Source: an uncultured Acidobacterium sp. (GTDB taxonomy: Bacteria > Acidobacteriota > Vicinamibacteria > Vicinamibacterales > UBA2999). Taken from it: DNA of 57,146 nucleotides. Below the pieces are notes generated by a model. It saw nothing but the letters and a program-made list of their open reading frames with translations. It had not been told where the DNA came from and made no database searches. Each line of letters begins with the position of its first letter. Within the stretch, counting starts at the first letter, position 1. Of this stretch, positions 6,330-54,090 are shown piece by piece. The DNA lies in assembly GCA_964355095.1 (NCBI GenBank), contig CAYHCX010000008.1:7320-64465 (forward strand), given 5' to 3'. The position numbers and the translations under genes are program-made.

Positions 6330-6352
6330 GTAGCATCCGCCTTTAGGCGGAC
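6330..6352. repeat. GTAG-type REP hairpin
   Basis: GTAGCATCCGCCTTTAGGCGGAC; relatives at 14019-14071 and 32854-32876. It supplies the folC stop codon. Confidence 0.7.
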
Positions 6353-13027: not shown

Positions 13028-14221
13028 CTATCGGCTCTCGCGTCGCATGCGCTGCGCGCGGGCCAGCGCGCCGGCGGGCGCGGCGGGCGCGGCGGCGATG
13101 ATTGCATCGAGTTGATCGATGGCGGCGCTCGTCCGCTTGAGCGCGCGCAGCTGCCGCGCCATGTTCAGGCGCGCCACCGTCTCCGCCAGCGCCGGCCGGT
13201 TCACCGATTCGGCGCGGGCCAGCGCGAGCAGCCGCTCCGAGGCGCGAAGGCTCGCCTCGGGGTCGTGAAAGTACTCGTCCAGGATCTCCGCCTCGATTCT
13301 GTAGAAGAGCGGATTGTGCGGGTAGTGCTCCTGCAGCGCGCGGACCATGCCGATGGCCTCGCGCCACTTGTTTTCGTACCAGAGGTAGATGACGTGGATC
13401 TGGAACTGCGCCTCGCCGCGAACCAGCTGGCCCTGGGTGGCGGCGCGCTCGATCTGCCGCAGCCCCTCGACCCGGTTGCCGCCCGGGAGCCTCAGCAACC
13501 AGCGCAGGAACTTCAGCGCAGCCGGCGCCACGTCGGCGTAGTAGCGGTACATGCCGATGCCGAATTCCGCGTCGTGCATGGCCGGGTCCAGCGCCAGCGC
13601 GCGCTCGAGCGCCGCCTTGATCCGCTTGCCGTCTCGCGCCGCCGCCAGCCGCTCGACCCGGTGCACGCGCCACTGCGCCCGCGCGCCGTAGGCGGCCCCG
13701 AGGTAGAACCAGCCCTCGGCGCGATGGGGTTCGGCCTCGGTCATCCGCTCGGCATCGGCGATCGCCTCCTCGACCTTGGCCTTGAACGCCGGATCGAGCG
13801 CGAGGCTCTCGGGATCCAGTTGAATCTGCCACCACAGGCTCAGGGCCTCGAGGCCGAGGCAGGCGACCTGCGGCGCCGGGCTTGTCCCGCCGAAGCCCTT
13901 GGGCGAAGGCGGACCGCAGGTGGCAGGCAGGTCCGCCCGCAGCCGATCGAAGTCGGCGTCGAGAATGGCGTCGTAGGCCTTGGCGACGAGTGGCGCGGCG
14001 GTGATGCCGGTGGCGGCTGTAGCGTCCGCCTTCTTGACCGCCGAAGCCTGCGCGGAGGTGGTTAGGCGGACCTGGGCCTGCCGCGAATCAGCCCGGCTGA
14101 CCGCCTTCGCCGAGGCTTCGGCGCTCAAGAAGCCGGACGCCACATTGACAAAGAGCACCGCCGCCACGACCAGGGCGACGGGAAATCTTGTTGCGCCGAA
14201 GCCTTGGCGAAGGCGGATCAT
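13028..14221 (-). CDS. Secreted TPR-repeat protein with repeat-derived insertions
   Basis: TPR helices (AEGWFYLGAAY, ALERALALDP), hydrophobic N-terminus, ATGA coupling to ddl. Confidence 0.8.
   Translation of the reverse strand: MIRLRQGFGATRFPVALVVAAVLFVNVASGFLSAEASAKAVSRADSRQAQVRLTTSAQASAVKKADATAATGITAAPLVAKAYDAILDADFDRLRADLPATCGPPSPKGFGGTSPAPQVACLGLEALSLWWQIQLDPESLALDPAFKAKVEEAIADAERMTEAEPHRAEGWFYLGAAYGARAQWRVHRVERLAAARDGKRIKAALERALALDPAMHDAEFGIGMYRYYADVAPAALKFLRWLLRLPGGNRVEGLRQIERAATQGQLVRGEAQFQIHVIYLWYENKWREAIGMVRALQEHYPHNPLFYRIEAEILDEYFHDPEASLRASERLLALARAESVNRPALAETVARLNMARQLRALKRTSAAIDQLDAIIAAAPAAPAGALARAQRMRRESR
13881..14217. repeat. Four ~30-nt CAAG-ended palindromic elements, one nested in a GTAG-REP
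   Basis: Copies at 13881-13913, 14033-14062, 14100-14129 and 14187-14217, consensus about WCCGCCTTCGCCNAGGCTTCGGCGNNCAAG. Confidence 0.8.
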
Positions 14222-15390: not shown

Positions 15391-17015
<1,625 letters not shown>

Positions 17016-32853: not shown

Positions 32854-32876
32854 GTAGCGTCCGGCTTCAGCCGGAC
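32854..32876. repeat. GTAG-type REP hairpin
   Basis: GTAGCGTCCGGCTTCAGCCGGAC. Confidence 0.7.
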
Positions 32877-47090: not shown

Positions 47091-49928
47091 TTAAAGACTC
47101 ACCGGCTCGGCCAGGGCTTCGACGCAGCGCGGGCACAGGCCGGCGCGGTCGGGTTGCTGGCTCACGTCAGGAACGTAACGCCAGCAGCGCTCGCACTTCG
47201 CGCCCTCGGCCTTCACGACTTCAACTCGAAGGCCGCCGTCAGGCTTGGGGCTTGAGGCTTGGGGCTTGAGTTCGACCTCCGACACACCAAACAGAGTCGG
47301 CAGAAACTCTCGATAGCTCTCCAGCAGCGCCGCGGTCGCGCCGTCCTGCTCCACGATCACTCGTGCCGACAAGTTGGCCCCGATGGTCTTGTCTTTCCGC
47401 TTCTCTTCGAGCTGCAGGTTGACCTGGTCGCGGACGGCGGCCAGCGACGCCCACCGTTCGATCAGGCCGGCGTCCTTCCACTGCTCGAGGCCGGTGGGGA
47501 ACAGCGCCATGTGCACCGAGGCTTCACGGTCGCCCGGCAGCATCCGCCACAACTCGTCCATCGTCACCGACAGGATGGGCGCGAGCAGGCGGGCGAGGCC
47601 GTCGACGATGATGAACATCGCGGTCTGGCCCGAGCGGCGGGCGTCCGACCTGGCGCCGAAGGTGTACATCCGGTCCTTGGTCACGTCGACGTAGAACGCG
47701 CTCAGGTCCACGGCGATCAGGTGGCTGGCGACCTGGAAGATGCCGGGGTAGTCGTAATCCTCGTAGGCCTTGACGATCCGCTCGGCGGCGTCGGCGTACT
47801 TGGCCAGCGCCCAGCGGTCAATCTCCTGCATGCGCGCCTTCGGCACGACGTCGTCTTTTGGATCGAAGTCATAGAGGTTCGCCACCAGCACGCGGATGAC
47901 GTTGCGGATCTTGCGATACGCCTCCACCGTGCGGGCGAGGACCTCCTTGCCGATGCGGGTGTCTTCGCGGTAGTCGACCATCGACACCCACAGCCGCAGG
48001 ATCTCGGAGCCGGTCTGCTTGATGATGTCCTGGGGCGAGACGGTGTTGCCGAGCGACTTGGACATCTTGCGGCCCTGCTCGTCCATGACGAAGCCGTGCG
48101 TGAGCACCTGGTTGAAGGGCGCCCGCCCGCGCGTGCCGATGCCGACCAGCAGCGAGCTGTGGAACCAGCCGCGGTGCTGGTCGCTGCCTTCGAGGTAGAT
48201 GTCGGCCGGCCAGTGATGGTCGGCGCGGAAGGGCAGCACGGCCTCGTGGCTCGAGCCCGAGTCGAACCACACGTCGAGAATGTTGCCCTCGCGCTCGAAC
48301 TCGGTGCCGCCGCACTCGGTGCAGGCCATGCCGGCCGGCACGAATTCCTCGACCGGCCGTTCGTACCAGGCGTCGGCGCCGTAGACGTCGAACACCGCCG
48401 CGGCCTTGTCCACCAGCGCCTTGGTGAGCACCGGGTGGCCGCACTTGACGCAGTCCATGGCCGGGATCGGCACGCCCCACACGCGCTGGCGCGAGATGCA
48501 CCAGTCGGGCCGGTTGGCGATCATGCCCTCGATGCGGGCCTGGCCCCACGACGGGATCCAGCGGGTGTCGTTGATCGCCTTGAGCGCGCGCTCGCGCAGG
48601 TGATTGGCGTCCATGGCGATGAACCACTGCGCGGTGGCGAGGAAGATCACCGGGTTGTGGCACCGCCAGCAGTGCGGGTAGGAATGCTCGAAGTCCTCAC
48701 GCGACCAGAGAAAACCCCGCTCCTTGAGCGCGGCCTCCACCTTGGGGTTGGCGTCCCAGACCTTGAGCCCGGCAAACAACTCGACCGACTCGTTGTAGTG
48801 CCCGCCGGGGTCGAGCGGCGCGTAGATCTCGAGGCCGTACTTGACGCCGCTGTGATAGTCGTCGGCGCCGTGGCCGGGCGCGGTGTGCACCGCGCCGGTA
48901 CCGGCTTCGAGCGTGACGTAGTCGCCGAGCACGCCCAGCGAGTCGCGCGCGTACAGCGGATGACGGAACACCAGCCGTTCCATGGCCTTGCCTTCGAACG
49001 AGGCCAGCAGCGCCGTGAAGGCGCGGCCGGTCTTCTGGCTCACGCTTTCAGCCAGGCCCTTGGCGATGATCACCGCCTTGCCATCAATGTCGTACGCGCC
49101 GTACTCGAAGTCGGGATGGAACGCGATGCCGAGATTCGACGGGATGGTCCACGGCGTCGTCGTCCAGATGAGGACCGAAGCGGGGGCTGAAGCCCCCGCT
49201 CTCCCTGCAGGCGAAGCCCCCGCCCTCCATGAGGCCAGTGCCGGCACGCGCCGGGCCAGCTCGGCGTGGCTGTCGTCGCTGAGCGGGAACTCGACGTAGA
49301 TCGACGGCGAGGTGTGCGGCTCGTACTCGACCTCGGCCTCGGCCAGCGCGGTGCGGCAGTGCGTGCACCAGTGCACGGGCTTCTTGCCCTTGTAGACCAT
49401 GTCCTGCTCGACGAACTTGCCGAGCGCGCGGACGATCGCCGCCTGGTAGGTGAAGGTCATCGTCTTGTAGGGGTCGTTCCACAGGCCGATGACGCCGAGG
49501 CGCTTGAAGCCGGCCCGCTGGATGTCAAGGTACTTCTCGGCGTAGGCCCGGCAGGCGCGGCGGAAGTCGGCCGTGCTCATCTGCTTCTTCTTCGGCCCGA
49601 GCTCCCGGTCAACCTTCAGTTCGATCGGCAGGCCATGGCAGTCCCAGCCCGGCAGGTAGGGCGCGTCGAAGCCGAGCATGTTGTGCGACTTGACGACCAG
49701 GTCCTTGAGAATCTTGTTGAGCGCCGTGCCGATGTGAATCTCGCCGTTGGCGTAGGGCGGGCCGTCGTGCAGCAGGAACGATTTCGCGCCCTTGCGCGCC
49801 GCCCGAATCTGCCCGTACAAATCCATTTCGTCCCAGCGGGCGATGGTTTCCGGTTCGGTCGTCTGCAGGTTCGCCTTCATCGAGAAGGACGTCCGCGGCA
49901 GGTTGCAGGTCTCTTTCCAGTCGGACAT
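47091..49928 (-). CDS. ileS: Isoleucine--tRNA ligase (type 1)
   Basis: HDGPPYANG, HIGT, GWDCHGLPIE, WCISRQR, KMSKS and a C-terminal CERC..CPRC zinc finger. Confidence 0.97.
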   Translation of the reverse strand: MSDWKETCNLPRTSFSMKANLQTTEPETIARWDEMDLYGQIRAARKGAKSFLLHDGPPYANGEIHIGTALNKILKDLVVKSHNMLGFDAPYLPGWDCHGLPIELKVDRELGPKKKQMSTADFRRACRAYAEKYLDIQRAGFKRLGVIGLWNDPYKTMTFTYQAAIVRALGKFVEQDMVYKGKKPVHWCTHCRTALAEAEVEYEPHTSPSIYVEFPLSDDSHAELARRVPALASWRAGASPAGRAGASAPASVLIWTTTPWTIPSNLGIAFHPDFEYGAYDIDGKAVIIAKGLAESVSQKTGRAFTALLASFEGKAMERLVFRHPLYARDSLGVLGDYVTLEAGTGAVHTAPGHGADDYHSGVKYGLEIYAPLDPGGHYNESVELFAGLKVWDANPKVEAALKERGFLWSREDFEHSYPHCWRCHNPVIFLATAQWFIAMDANHLRERALKAINDTRWIPSWGQARIEGMIANRPDWCISRQRVWGVPIPAMDCVKCGHPVLTKALVDKAAAVFDVYGADAWYERPVEEFVPAGMACTECGGTEFEREGNILDVWFDSGSSHEAVLPFRADHHWPADIYLEGSDQHRGWFHSSLLVGIGTRGRAPFNQVLTHGFVMDEQGRKMSKSLGNTVSPQDIIKQTGSEILRLWVSMVDYREDTRIGKEVLARTVEAYRKIRNVIRVLVANLYDFDPKDDVVPKARMQEIDRWALAKYADAAERIVKAYEDYDYPGIFQVASHLIAVDLSAFYVDVTKDRMYTFGARSDARRSGQTAMFIIVDGLARLLAPILSVTMDELWRMLPGDREASVHMALFPTGLEQWKDAGLIERWASLAAVRDQVNLQLEEKRKDKTIGANLSARVIVEQDGATAALLESYREFLPTLFGVSEVELKPQASSPKPDGGLRVEVVKAEGAKCERCWRYVPDVSQQPDRAGLCPRCVEALAEPVSL

Positions 49929-49952
49929 GGGTATCTGTGTATTGTACTGTGA

Positions 49953-49985
49953 GGACTTGGGGCTTGAGACCTGGGGCTTGGGGGA
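49953..49985. repeat. GGCTTGG heptamer array
   Basis: Degenerate units in the divergent ileS/M16 gap; another array at 47242-47269 lies inside ileS. Confidence 0.7.
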
Positions 49986-49988
49986 GAC

Positions 49989-51281
49989 GTGACGGTTCGT
50001 GAAACGGTCCTGGATAACGGCTTGAAAGTCCTGGTGCAGGAGGTCCACACCGCCCCGCTGGCGTCGGTGTGGTGCTGGTATCGCGTCGGGTCCAAGGACG
50101 AAACCCCCGGCGTCACCGGCGTCTCGCATTGGGTCGAGCACATGAACTTCAAGGGGACCCGCAACATTCCCCGCGACCAGGTGAAGGGCATCATCGAGAA
50201 ATTCGGGGGGAGCTGGAACGGCTACACCTGGATCGACCAGACCACCTATCTGGAAACCGCCTCCAAGGACGCGCTGGATCGGATGCTGTTCATCGAGGCG
50301 GAGCGCATGGACGCGTGCCTTTACGACCCCGCCGACTGCGAGTCGGAGCGGACCGTGATCATTTCTGAGCTGCACGGCGGCGAGAACGACCCGGAGCAGC
50401 TGCTCGATACCGAGGTCACCGCCGCCGCCTTCAAGGTGCATCCGTACCATCACCCGACCATCGGCTGGCTGTCGGATCTGCAGACCATGACGCGCGACGA
50501 TCTCTACGGGCACTATCGCCGCTACTACGCGCCCTCCAACGCCACCATCGTCGTGGTCGGCGATGTCGATAGCGATGACGTGGTGAAGCGCGTGCAGGCG
50601 CAGTTTGGCGGCATTGCCCCGGGATCGCGCCCGGCCCGCGTCCGCCAGGTGGAGCCCGAGCAGCAGGCGGAACGGCGCGTGGTGCTGCGCAGGGAGGGCA
50701 CCACGGCTTACTGGAAAGCGGTGTTTCACGCCCCGGCGTTCGCCGACGAGGCGTTCTTCCCGCTGCTGGTGGCCGACGCCGTGCTCAACGGCGCCGCCGG
50801 GCTGAACATCTGGTCGATGGGCGGCGTGTCGCGGCCGCAGCGCAGCGCCCGGCTCTACCGCGCGCTCGTCGATGGCGGCCTCGCCTCCACCGTGGGCGGG
50901 GCCTTGATGCCGACCGAGCATCCCTACCTGTATGCGATCAACGCCAGCGTGGCGGAAGGCAAGTCGCTTGCGGCGGTGGAAGACGTGGTGCTCAAGGAAG
51001 TGGAGCGCCTGCAGCAGGGCGGCATCACGCCGGCGGAGTTCGCCAAGGTCAACGCCCAGTTGCGGGCGCGCTTCGTCTACGACGCCGACAGCGTGACCGA
51101 CATCGCGCACCAGTTGGGCTACTTCGAAACCATTGGGTCGTGGCGGGGCTATCACGAGCTGCGCGCCCGGCTGGAGGCCGTCACACCGGAGGCCGTGCAC
51201 GCCGCGGCGGTGAAGTACCTGTCGTCCGCAAATCGCACGATTGGCTGGTTCGAACCTGGTGTCGCAGACGTCTTACCTTGA
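49989..51281 (+). CDS. M16 family zinc protease, catalytic subunit
   Basis: LDNGL, VGSKDE..G.SHWVEHMNFKGT (HxxEH), HPYHHPTIG, YYAPSNA. Confidence 0.93.
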   Translation: MTVRETVLDNGLKVLVQEVHTAPLASVWCWYRVGSKDETPGVTGVSHWVEHMNFKGTRNIPRDQVKGIIEKFGGSWNGYTWIDQTTYLETASKDALDRMLFIEAERMDACLYDPADCESERTVIISELHGGENDPEQLLDTEVTAAAFKVHPYHHPTIGWLSDLQTMTRDDLYGHYRRYYAPSNATIVVVGDVDSDDVVKRVQAQFGGIAPGSRPARVRQVEPEQQAERRVVLRREGTTAYWKAVFHAPAFADEAFFPLLVADAVLNGAAGLNIWSMGGVSRPQRSARLYRALVDGGLASTVGGALMPTEHPYLYAINASVAEGKSLAAVEDVVLKEVERLQQGGITPAEFAKVNAQLRARFVYDADSVTDIAHQLGYFETIGSWRGYHELRARLEAVTPEAVHAAAVKYLSSANRTIGWFEPGVADVLP

Positions 51282-52743: not shown

Positions 52744-54090
52744 ATGACGGCGGACCAAGGGCTGCATCCGTCGCGGGTCGTATTGGGAAACGGCGTCACC
52801 GTGATCGTCAAGGCGAATCACACGACGCCCGCCGTGAGCCTGCTGGTCGGCGTTCGCGCCGGCGCCTACTCCGATCCCCCCGATCGCGAAGGCACCGCCG
52901 CCCTGTGCGCGCGCGTGCTCGATCGGGGCACCGTGACGCGGCCCGCGGAGGTGATTGCCGACGACCTCGACGGCCGCGGCGCGTCGCTGTCGGTCGTGGC
53001 CGGCCGCCACCAGATGGCGATCAGCGCCACCTGCCTGGCCGACGATTTCGGATCGGTGCTGACCCTGGCCGCCGACATCGCCCGCCACCCGGCCTTTCCG
53101 GATGCCGAGGTGAACACGCGCCGGGCGGATCTGATCACCTCGATCCGCCAGGACCAAGACGACCCCGCGCCGATGGCGGTGGATGCGTTCAACCGCGCGC
53201 TCTACGGCCCGCACCCCTACGCGCGCAAGGTGCGCGGCACGGTGGCATCAGTCGAGGGCATCAAGCGGCAGGACCTGGTGCGGTTCTACCAGCAGGGCTT
53301 CCAGCCGGGCGCCATCACGGTCGTCGTCGTCGGCGACGTAAAGGAAGAGGCGGCCATCGCGGCGATTGCCAAGGCGTTCAGCGACTGGCCCGCCTCCGCC
53401 AAGGCTTCCGTCTTCGCCCAGGCTACGGCGGACAAGCCGGCGGGGCAAGCCTCCCCCCTGGACGTTGCGGCGGAGCCGCCAACCGTTCCCGACGCGATTG
53501 CGCCCACCGAGCGGCGCCTCGTGACCGTGCCGATGATGAGCAAGGCGCAGGCCGACATCGCGTATGGCTTCGTCGGCATCCGCCGCTCGAATCCCGACTA
53601 CACCGCGTATTCGGTGATGAACAACGCCCTCGGCCAATACGCCATTGGCGGACGCCTCGGCGACAGCATTCGCGAACGGCAAGGCATGGCCTACTACGTG
53701 TTCAGCTCGCTCGACGCCAGCCTGGGTGCCGGGCCGTTCACCATTCGCGCCGGCGTCTCGGCCGCCAACGTCGAGAAGGCCATCGCCTCGATCGACACGG
53801 AGCTGGCCGCCGTCGTGCAGTCGGGCTTCACCGCGCAGGAGATCGACGAGTCGAAGAGCTACCTGGTGGGGTCGCTGCCACGGCAGCTCGAAACCAATGC
53901 CGCCATCGCCTCGTTCCTGCTGAACGCCGAGTTCTTCGGCCTGGGACTGGACTACGATGTCCGCTTGCCTGGCCTGATTCAGTCGGTGACGCTCGAGGCC
54001 GCCAACGACACCGCGCGCCGGTTGCTCGATCCCGCTCGCGCCACCATCGCCGTGGCCGGGCCGTGGCAGCCCTCTCCGCCGAACCCGTGA
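52744..54090 (+). CDS. M16 family protease, non-catalytic partner subunit
   Basis: LGNG, G.AAL...LDRGT without HxxEH, YGPHPY, RL...IRERQGMAY. Confidence 0.9.
   Translation: MTADQGLHPSRVVLGNGVTVIVKANHTTPAVSLLVGVRAGAYSDPPDREGTAALCARVLDRGTVTRPAEVIADDLDGRGASLSVVAGRHQMAISATCLADDFGSVLTLAADIARHPAFPDAEVNTRRADLITSIRQDQDDPAPMAVDAFNRALYGPHPYARKVRGTVASVEGIKRQDLVRFYQQGFQPGAITVVVVGDVKEEAAIAAIAKAFSDWPASAKASVFAQATADKPAGQASPLDVAAEPPTVPDAIAPTERRLVTVPMMSKAQADIAYGFVGIRRSNPDYTAYSVMNNALGQYAIGGRLGDSIRERQGMAYYVFSSLDASLGAGPFTIRAGVSAANVEKAIASIDTELAAVVQSGFTAQEIDESKSYLVGSLPRQLETNAAIASFLLNAEFFGLGLDYDVRLPGLIQSVTLEAANDTARRLLDPARATIAVAGPWQPSPPNP
53390..53449. repeat. Self-nested CAAG-ended palindromic element inside a CDS
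   Basis: Outer copy ccgcctccgccaaggct|ccggcggggcaag is interrupted by a 30-nt copy at 53407-53436. Confidence 0.75.

Follow-up and report, generated by a model that had tools for sequence, protein, structure and literature searches.

A nested 30-nt hairpin repeat, probably a very small mobile DNA element, within and between genes of Vicinamibacterales

Introduction

Several systems of short palindromic repeats in bacteria form the background to E1, the name used here for a 30-nt hairpin repeat, four copies of which lie within a single gene of a 57,146-nt stretch of DNA from an uncultured Acidobacterium sp. of the order Vicinamibacterales (contig CAYHCX010000008.1, positions 7,320 to 64,465; this whole stretch is called the window). 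According to Di Nocera, De Gregorio and Rocco (2013; PMC3733652), some families of repetitive extragenic palindromes (REPs) are regularly found inside small palindromes and their movement is assumed to take place in trans. For REPs tagged with GTAG or CGTC, the same source (PMC3733652) places some copies entirely within open reading frames (ORFs) of known proteins, many of them N-terminally. The Rickettsia palindromic elements (RPEs) are described in PMC10969869 and PMC3733652 as ten families of about 150 bp in obligate intracellular alpha-proteobacteria, which enter unrelated genes in frame and are read into the proteins as additional stretches of peptide. REP doublets (REPINs) and RAYT nucleases are dealt with by Bertels and Rainey (2011; PMC3116915) and Nunvar et al. 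(2010; PMC2817692).

E1 resembles each of these systems in part. It is probably a very small, non-autonomous mobile DNA element, found at filled sites whose empty counterparts survive in close relatives, and about half of its copies are inside other hairpin repeats.

The small dispersed repeats (SDRs) of Nostoc also belong to this background. These, reportedly described by Elhai et al. in 2008, are said to be hairpin mobile units of 21-27 nt, nested in themselves and in other repeats, for which a mobiliser is not known; their association with heptamer repeats and HIP1 is said to be specific to cyanobacteria.

Results

A 30-nt hairpin in many copies

The studied genome (G000; G numbers denote genomes and C numbers their contigs) is a metagenome-assembled genome of 4.23 Mb in 212 contigs, in which repeats are under-assembled. 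An nhmmer profile made from 27 seed copies of E1 gives 152 matches in it at 12 bits or more and 124 at 14 bits or more, compared with one and none, respectively, in the reversed, uncomplemented genome used as a control. A count across the genome had been proposed as a check in an earlier reading of the window made from its letters alone (the sequence-only reading), and these numbers are greater than chance would give.

The E1 unit is 30 nt long, with the consensus 5'-CTTGTCCGCCG(T/A)AGCCTTGGCGAAGGCGGA-3', and its ends are defined because pairs of filled and empty sites fix them. Its CTTG tail is unpaired and leads into a 26-nt hairpin that consists, in order, of a 6-bp foot, a segment of G.A, N-N and A.G, a 3-bp apical stem and a TT loop.

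Base pairs were counted in 113 unique ungapped copies, nine duplicate rows out of 122 having been removed; since the copies share ancestry, the counts are not of independent events. All four Watson-Crick forms are found at the foot pair 5-30 (T-A 45, A-T 24, C-G 19, G-C 9). Pair 16-19 is C-G in 92 copies and T-A in 13, and pair 8-27 is G-C in 66, G.T in 29, A-T in 16 and A.C in none. These three pairs show that the hairpin is maintained by compensating changes, with wobble on one strand only, and the structure of E1 is under selection. The non-canonical pairs are also kept, with 107 copies having G.A at 11-24 and 104 having A.G at 13-22, and the four letters of the CTTG tail are present in 104, 89, 92 and 104 of the 122 rows. 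Rfam contains no fitting family; the only matches were sub-threshold look-alikes of long hairpins, namely miRNA precursors, with scores of 25-37 bits where the gathering scores are 74-197.

The internal GTAG of E1 is variable, its second base being T in 60 of the 113 copies, A in 35, G in 11 and C in 7. Judged from the consensus, one frame of the GTAG variant contains a TAG, and all six are open in the GAAG variant. All four copies in the gene of the window carry the GAAG variant.

Four copies within one gene of the window

The gene that holds the four copies, the copies themselves and the related repeats of the window are as follows.

13028-14221, minus strand: host ORF of 397 aa with a signal-peptide-like start, predicted to encode a secreted TPR-like product
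14187-14217, plus strand: E1 copy 1, 31 nt, forming codons 2-11 right behind the start ATG; profile score 33.6 bits
14100-14129, minus strand: E1 copy 2, 30 nt, in the loop of the REP at 14091-14143
14033-14062, plus strand: E1 copy 3, 30 nt, in the loop of the REP at 14019-14071
13881-13913, plus strand: E1 copy 4, a 33-nt variant that encodes 11 residues of the host protein
14019-14071, plus strand: composite of REP and E1, with a GTAG head and the stem GTCCGCC/GGCGGAC; DNA fold of -13 kcal/mol, z -2.1
14091-14143, minus strand: composite of REP and E1, with a GTGG head and the stem GTCCGGC/GCCGGGC
14019-14143, no strand assigned: REPIN of two inverted composite REPs with a 19-nt spacer, 125 nt in all
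6330-6352, plus strand: empty outer REP with a GTAG head and the 4-nt loop TTTA; -6.5 kcal/mol, z -3.7
32854-32876, plus strand: second empty outer REP of the window, with the loop TTCA
53389-53449, minus strand: two-layer nest of E1 in E1, 61 nt, in the Peptidase_M16_C region of an M16 peptidase gene (52744-54087, plus strand)

The host gene is directly downstream of ddl, its start ATG overlapping the ddl stop codon (ATGA). Genome-wide, it is the only place with four E1 matches inside 340 nt. The sequence-only reading had described four copies in one TPR gene; the four copies are there, whilst the TPR label is weakly supported, the sole Pfam match of the putative TPR protein being TPR_14 at 23.6 bits (cut-off 23.5). 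The same reading had given the three internal copies as 30 or 33 nt long and in frame, which is correct (30, 30 and 33 nt); copy 1, at 31 nt, is not a multiple of three. Copy 4 differs from the unit by one additional C in the left arm and one additional apical base pair.

Excision of exactly 30 nt (14033-14062) from 14019-14071 had been said to restore a free REP but for one base. The 23-mer that is left does equal the REP at 6330-6352 except at the sixth position, which is G in one and A in the other, and the loop of the REP at 14019-14071 holds 34 nt compared with 4 in empty REPs. Copy 2 is likewise nested in a second REP (14091-14143, minus strand), which goes beyond what had been claimed explicitly. 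The REPIN at 14019-14143 folds as one long hairpin of -48.1 kcal/mol (DNA folding; z -7.5, equalled by none of 200 shuffles), and its translation forms a low-complexity linker behind the signal peptide.

Twenty public runs were examined as contigs, a form in which rare variants stay invisible and gaps in cover carry no information. Contigs of four runs stack up and stop at 14093-14145, as would be expected of a multi-copy repeat. A single contig of run X8 joins 13880 to 13914, a weak indication (90% likeness, 29 letters on the shorter side) that may come from a related organism. Two further contig joints, 14039-14194 and 14123-14194, connect one E1 with another and are likely to be repeat artefacts.

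Filled and empty sites

Eighteen orthologous host-gene loci of the genus were aligned, one locus that had no anchor and one that was too long being left out. Copy 4 is absent from 14 of the 18, the net difference being 33 nt with the frame preserved. G000, G024, G012 and G006 have it, in a degenerate form of 30 nt in G012 and with 6 nt more in G006. The orthologue comparison proposed in the sequence-only reading thus gave a clean empty site for copy 4 and no in-frame empty site for copies 1-3, which belong to an N-terminal part that does not align among orthologues. In G024, a 97%-identical relative, the position of copy 1 is taken up by unrelated sequence.

As a separate observation on this stretch, G000 has 209 nt at 14009-14217 where G024 has 89 unrelated nt (locus L004, 1424-1512), a difference of 120 nt between flanks that are both 97% identical. 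Several orthologues instead have short tandem repeats in the signal-peptide region of the host gene.

Three other 20-kb stretches were compared with relatives of the genus for further sites. At C30:3822, a two-layer nest is a clean addition of 60 nt, the site being empty in G024, G022 and G009, and at C25:11876 a clean addition of 30 nt is seen relative to the relatives. The site at C30:6753 has 30 nt more beside a separate 9-nt indel; G017 has the filled form too, G024 and G009 the empty one. At C30:10212, 30 nt have been added right behind a start codon, with the junction sequence partly changed; G024 has this insertion as well as G000, and four others lack it. At C30:18791 G000 has a copy that G024 and G009 lack, and other E1 variants occupy this place in G012 and G022. 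The net addition is 27 nt at C19:28092. At C19:44301 an entire composite of REP and E1, a net 69 nt, is absent from G024, and at C25:25110 both G000 and G024 have an inner E1, of different subfamilies.

No target-site duplication is seen at the filled and empty sites of copy 4, C30, C19 and C25. The seven polymorphic sites, with net additions of 27 to 69 nt, all differ by multiples of three. In long matched pieces around the polymorphic sites G024 is 91-97% identical to G000, and the insertions must therefore be recent events. E1 has been copied to new places without target-site duplication and is recently active; its description as mobile in the sequence-only reading is upheld by the absence of copy 4 from most orthologues and by these other clean differences.

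Nesting in REPs and in E1 itself

A pattern search of G000 for the outer REPs found 44 with a 4-nt loop (TTTA or TTCA), 24 in which exactly 30 nt have been added to the loop, two with 31 or 32 nt added and one multi-layer nest. The heads of the 44 empty and 26 E1-carrying copies all conform to G[TC][AG]G. In G012, the host gene has two empty REPs of this family at the place of the filled ones in G000. One element does sit in the loop of a different one, as the letters of the window had suggested.

Strict flank rules place 30 of the 113 copies inside REP-type loops and 20 inside E1, giving 50 in hairpin repeats; in a further 15 the 3' flank starts with AGY. Insertion into E1 is between the T and the A of the host GTAG, so that every layer contributes 12 nt to the left side and 18 nt to the right. 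There are eight strict 60-nt nests of this kind, in which the outer arms pair with each other at five or six of six positions. Outer and inner arms differ in all eight, which points to insertion of a different copy rather than to local duplication. Among matches at most 60 nt apart, 12 of 13 pairs have the same orientation and the sole opposite pair does not overlap; overlapping or abutting neighbours agree in 12 of 12 cases. About half of the E1 copies are inside other hairpin repeats, always in the orientation of the host hairpin, the remaining ones being situated between or within genes, and the proposal that E1 seeks hairpins as its target is supported by these counts.

The REP+E1 composite itself also spreads as a unit. 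Among the 26 composites, the foot pair is A-T in 22, a form unseen among solo copies, and G-C in four. Copies of the T-A type lie one base further along REP-like loops at C44:11797, C10:12669 and C166:3565. The A-T, G-C and shifted T-A types together show that the REP loop has been hit at least three times, although the majority of the composites descend from a single lineage.

A longer composite of about 75 nt was also noticed, in which a CGGCGAG/CTCGCCG hairpin is followed by E1 and then by a GCGGCC/GGCCGC hairpin ending in GAAGGCGG. Its flanks are common, by eye, to seven copies (C33:9156, C11:33113, C27:26106, C30:40335, C70:17085, C149:5741 and C33:18246); a strict pattern for the three hairpins caught only two.

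E1 within genes

Matches were classed as intragenic by a rule of our own, applied without a gene finder, which demands a stop-free frame across the match and a signal from GC content at third codon positions (GC3) in that frame in both 180-nt flanks. The rule is passed by 38 of 134 testable matches, the other 96 failing it, and by 1675 of 2907 random 36-nt windows. E1 is therefore under-represented in genes by about half and is far from excluded.

The 38 intragenic copies make use of all six frames (16, 7, 6, 5, 3 and 1 copies). Enrichment among them of lengths divisible by three, a further check put forward in the sequence-only reading, is not visible: a net indel of zero is found for all 13 near-full-length matches in genes and for 45 of 50 elsewhere (Fisher p 0.57). 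No frame filter can be seen because the unit is 30 nt everywhere, also outside genes. Insertions in genes are tolerated since the unit amounts to ten codons and is stop-free in at least five of the six frames.

Distribution across genomes

Of 151 sampled genomes of Vicinamibacterales, 65 contain the exact 21-nt core of E1, and these fall in 33 of 79 genera; none of the reversed controls contains it. Counts reach 80 cores per genome in the order and range from 2 to 47 within the genus. In a sample of the phylum (201 genomes, including G000), five have the core, just one of them outside the order. Presence is patchy inside genera (8 of 12 genomes in genus g6, 6 of 9 in g29).

Search for a mobiliser

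Among 33 ORFs of the window that were scanned, none has a match to a family of transposases or nucleases at E <= 1e-5, the window genes being ordinary housekeeping genes. The earlier statement that no mobiliser is encoded here thus stands. G000 has two Y1_Tnp genes, on contigs C127 and C9 rather than on that of the window, which is consistent with movement in trans. The gene on C9 has no adjoining repeats. On C127 (8296-8875), a 193-aa RAYT-like gene is preceded by three direct hairpin repeats of about 41 nt, and one more copy, inverted, follows it where the contig ends; these repeats are of another family than E1 or the outer REP.

A ‘REPtron’ for the outer REP is found in the congener G111, at about 1227-2120 of locus L123 (G111:C4:51034-54357). 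Its RAYT is a 181-aa Y1 ORF (L123 1378-1920, minus strand) that lies between GTGG/GTAG outer-REP arrays in opposite orientations, with three and five heads. The best G000 homologue of this protein is 41% identical and flanked by different repeats, and the G000 assembly contains no close copy. A connection to RAYT nucleases, which the sequence-only reading had raised, therefore holds for the outer REP, in this congener, and would be conjectural for E1 itself.

Across the order, Y1_Tnp is present in 56 of 65 E1-positive and 48 of 86 E1-negative genomes (odds ratio 4.9, Fisher p 8e-5, uncorrected for kinship). The suggestion that copies of the element might flank a gene for its mobiliser came to nothing: no candidate emerged among 29 pairs of E1 lying 300-3500 nt apart, of which the two most transposon-like were read. 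One of these two frames a sugar-kinase-like ORF with E1 inside, and the other a spurious frame; both were rejected.

Other observations in the window

The spacer between ddl and the next gene contains two 7-nt tandem arrays, at 15405-15426 and 15440-15492, with the units GGGGCTT and TCAAGCC. The ORF at 47094-51200, isoleucyl-tRNA synthetase-like, has 1369 aa and its first Pfam domain only from residue 453; it is either an over-extended frame in GC-rich DNA or a protein with a long N-terminal extension.

Discussion

The reading of E1 as a very small, non-autonomous mobile element is likely to be right, and this judgement covers its copying without duplication, its nesting, its tolerance in genes and the copying of the composite. 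The active form would be the single strand as written in the consensus, and a host-encoded enzyme that recognises the hairpin may move it in trans. Nested insertion is into a REP loop or between the T and A of the GTAG of another E1. After E1 has entered a REP loop, the resulting composite is copied as a unit too.

A number of observations weigh against parts of this reading or of the mechanism proposed for it. On the gene tree, the filled state of copy 4 requires at least two changes, G006 being filled and its sister G003 empty (support 100/98). Because G006 and G000 have a rare 33-nt variant in common and CCG repeats flank copy 4, precise loss of this copy is as plausible as repeated gain. 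The lone E1 hairpin is not unusually stable relative to shuffles (nearest-neighbour DNA energies: z 0.03 for copy 1 and -1.3 for copy 4), so that the structural case rests on covariation. As to repeated targeting of REP loops, a common subfamily signature in 22 of the 26 composites and the absence of one whole composite from G024 indicate that much of the nested count is due to a composite copied as a unit. The remaining points speak against a RAYT or IS608-like mechanism. Around 22 Y1_Tnp loci of G000, G024, G012, G111, G167 and G011 there is no E1 match of at least 14 bits up to a distance of 1.5 kb, and a single weaker match scores 13.2 bits. Nine of the 65 E1-positive genomes have no Y1_Tnp match, including G073 (100% complete, 10 cores) and G097 (100% complete, 20 cores). 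Solo E1 sites share no flanking tetranucleotide, a common flank being provided only by host hairpins, and in G085, a single contig with 80 exact cores, orientation shows no two-arc pattern (permutation p 0.93; origin and terminus unmapped).

Some of these points would be accommodated if the nested form were simply a long REP variant, in which one ancient insertion of E1 into a loop was followed by copying by the REP's own RAYT, with E1 not seeking hairpins at all. The A-T foot of most composites, unseen among solo copies, fits such a history, as does the REPtron of the outer REP in G111, and the composite at C19:44301 that is wholly missing in G024 must have arrived as a unit or in quick succession. 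However, the nests of E1 in E1 (20 by strict flanks; eight strict 60-nt nests with differing layers) are left unexplained. The four composites with a G-C foot and the three shifted copies of the T-A type imply several separate events rather than a single ancient one, and G012 has empty REPs in the very gene where those of G000 are filled. This explanation is accordingly rather doubtful as an account of E1 as a whole. It is also unlikely that E1 has no dedicated enzyme and is spread and lost through replication and repair, by template switching, gene conversion between extruded hairpins or slippage on short flanking repeats. Such processes would need neither a conserved target nor an element-linked gene, in keeping with what was found, and could act in the E1-rich genomes that have no Y1_Tnp. 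The different E1 subfamilies within the same host element at C25:25110, between similar flanks, look conversion-like, and the CCG repeats around copy 4 would permit precise slippage. Against this stand the exact boundaries (CTTG ... GGA), which recur at unrelated sites and lack microhomology at C30:6753, the conserved unpaired CTTG tail and the strict single orientation of nests, together with the restriction of wobble to G.T, an asymmetry that points to recognition of one strand.

Two further explanations place the value of E1 in the host rather than in its movement. A 21-nt core that is identical to the letter across 33 of 79 genera, and a stem that covaries with G.T on one strand only, as expected of RNA or of a single-strand structure, are what might be seen if E1 were mainly a site useful to the host, such as a site bound by a DNA- or RNA-binding protein or an mRNA structure, kept by selection and only secondarily mobile. 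The patchiness within genera g6 and g29, the variable presence among relatives that are 91-97% identical, the use of all six frames in unrelated genes and the lack of a fixed position relative to genes make this improbable. That E1 is a selected peptide motif, in other words a coding repeat, is scarcely credible, even though 38 of the 134 testable matches are in open frames flanked on either side by a coding signal and the gene in the window translates four copies. The other 96 testable matches fail the intragenic rule, thirty of the 113 unique copies are in REP loops and orthologues do without the segment; six-frame usage and the non-coding copies refute it.

For E1 as a mobile element, the most likely candidate for the mobiliser is a Y1 HUH nuclease of the RAYT-like kind, a choice that can be made only tentatively. 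A different activity, not of the Y1/RAYT type, which pastes the 30-nt hairpin in one orientation into single-stranded hairpin loops, seems a long shot, the ten-codon, nearly stop-free design then being an adaptation to life in genes. If that were true, E1 would be among the smallest self-nesting mobile DNAs, and its patchy spread across the order, which takes in complete genomes that have no Y1_Tnp match, would allow the mobiliser to be found by gene co-occurrence.

Whatever moves them, hairpin repeats of this small size reshape proteins in a lineage that is common in fresh water and soil, as is the case in Rickettsia. In one secreted protein, E1 and REP supply part of the signal-peptide region, a linker and an internal loop. 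E1 at the starts of genes or inside them will displace predicted starts and give rise to apparent low-complexity segments, which matters for annotation. With a short unit, exact ends, filled and empty sites in close relatives and from 0 to 80 copies across the order, E1 is a clean test case, and a practical one in which to look for whatever moves REP-like elements that have no tie to a RAYT.

Comparison with known systems

The outer REP of the window fits the class of GTAG-REPs fully, having many copies and, 5' of a short hairpin rich in GC, a conserved tetranucleotide that is GTAG or GTGG. E1 resembles this class in being short, palindromic and of high copy number, intragenic in part and found within other palindromes. 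It differs in that it has no terminal GTAG or CGTC tag, carrying a CTTG tail instead and a GTAG that is internal and variable. Nor is it beside a RAYT; it nests in itself at a fixed internal point, and more than a quarter of its testable matches are intragenic. A similar division is seen with the REPIN-RAYT system: the outer REP makes inverted doublets (14019-14143) and flanks a single RAYT on both sides in G111, whereas E1 occurs singly or nested and forms no doublets.

With IS200/IS605-like transposition E1 has in common the lack of target-site duplication, but it has no fixed 4-5-nt target. From miniature transposable elements of the MITE class, which carry the terminal inverted repeats of an insertion sequence and duplicate their target site, it is set apart by that same lack and by its architecture, the whole element being a single hairpin plus a 4-nt tail. 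E1 shares with the RPEs the in-frame insertion into otherwise conserved genes, as seen in the seven polymorphic sites that are all multiples of three and in the 38 open-frame matches; the 30-nt unit and the free-living Acidobacteriota host distinguish it by description. Like the SDRs as reportedly described, E1 is a very small hairpin unit that inserts in its own copies, in a different phylum and with a different sequence.

A search of the literature on REPs of Acidobacteria and Vicinamibacter, on RAYT and on nested in-frame palindromic elements found no description of the E1 family. Nested in-frame hairpin repeats are already known from other bacteria, and the E1 family appears to be new among them. 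Set beside these systems, and with no RAYT next to it, E1 is unusual in its ten-codon unit, its self-nesting at a fixed point and its letter-for-letter conservation across an order.

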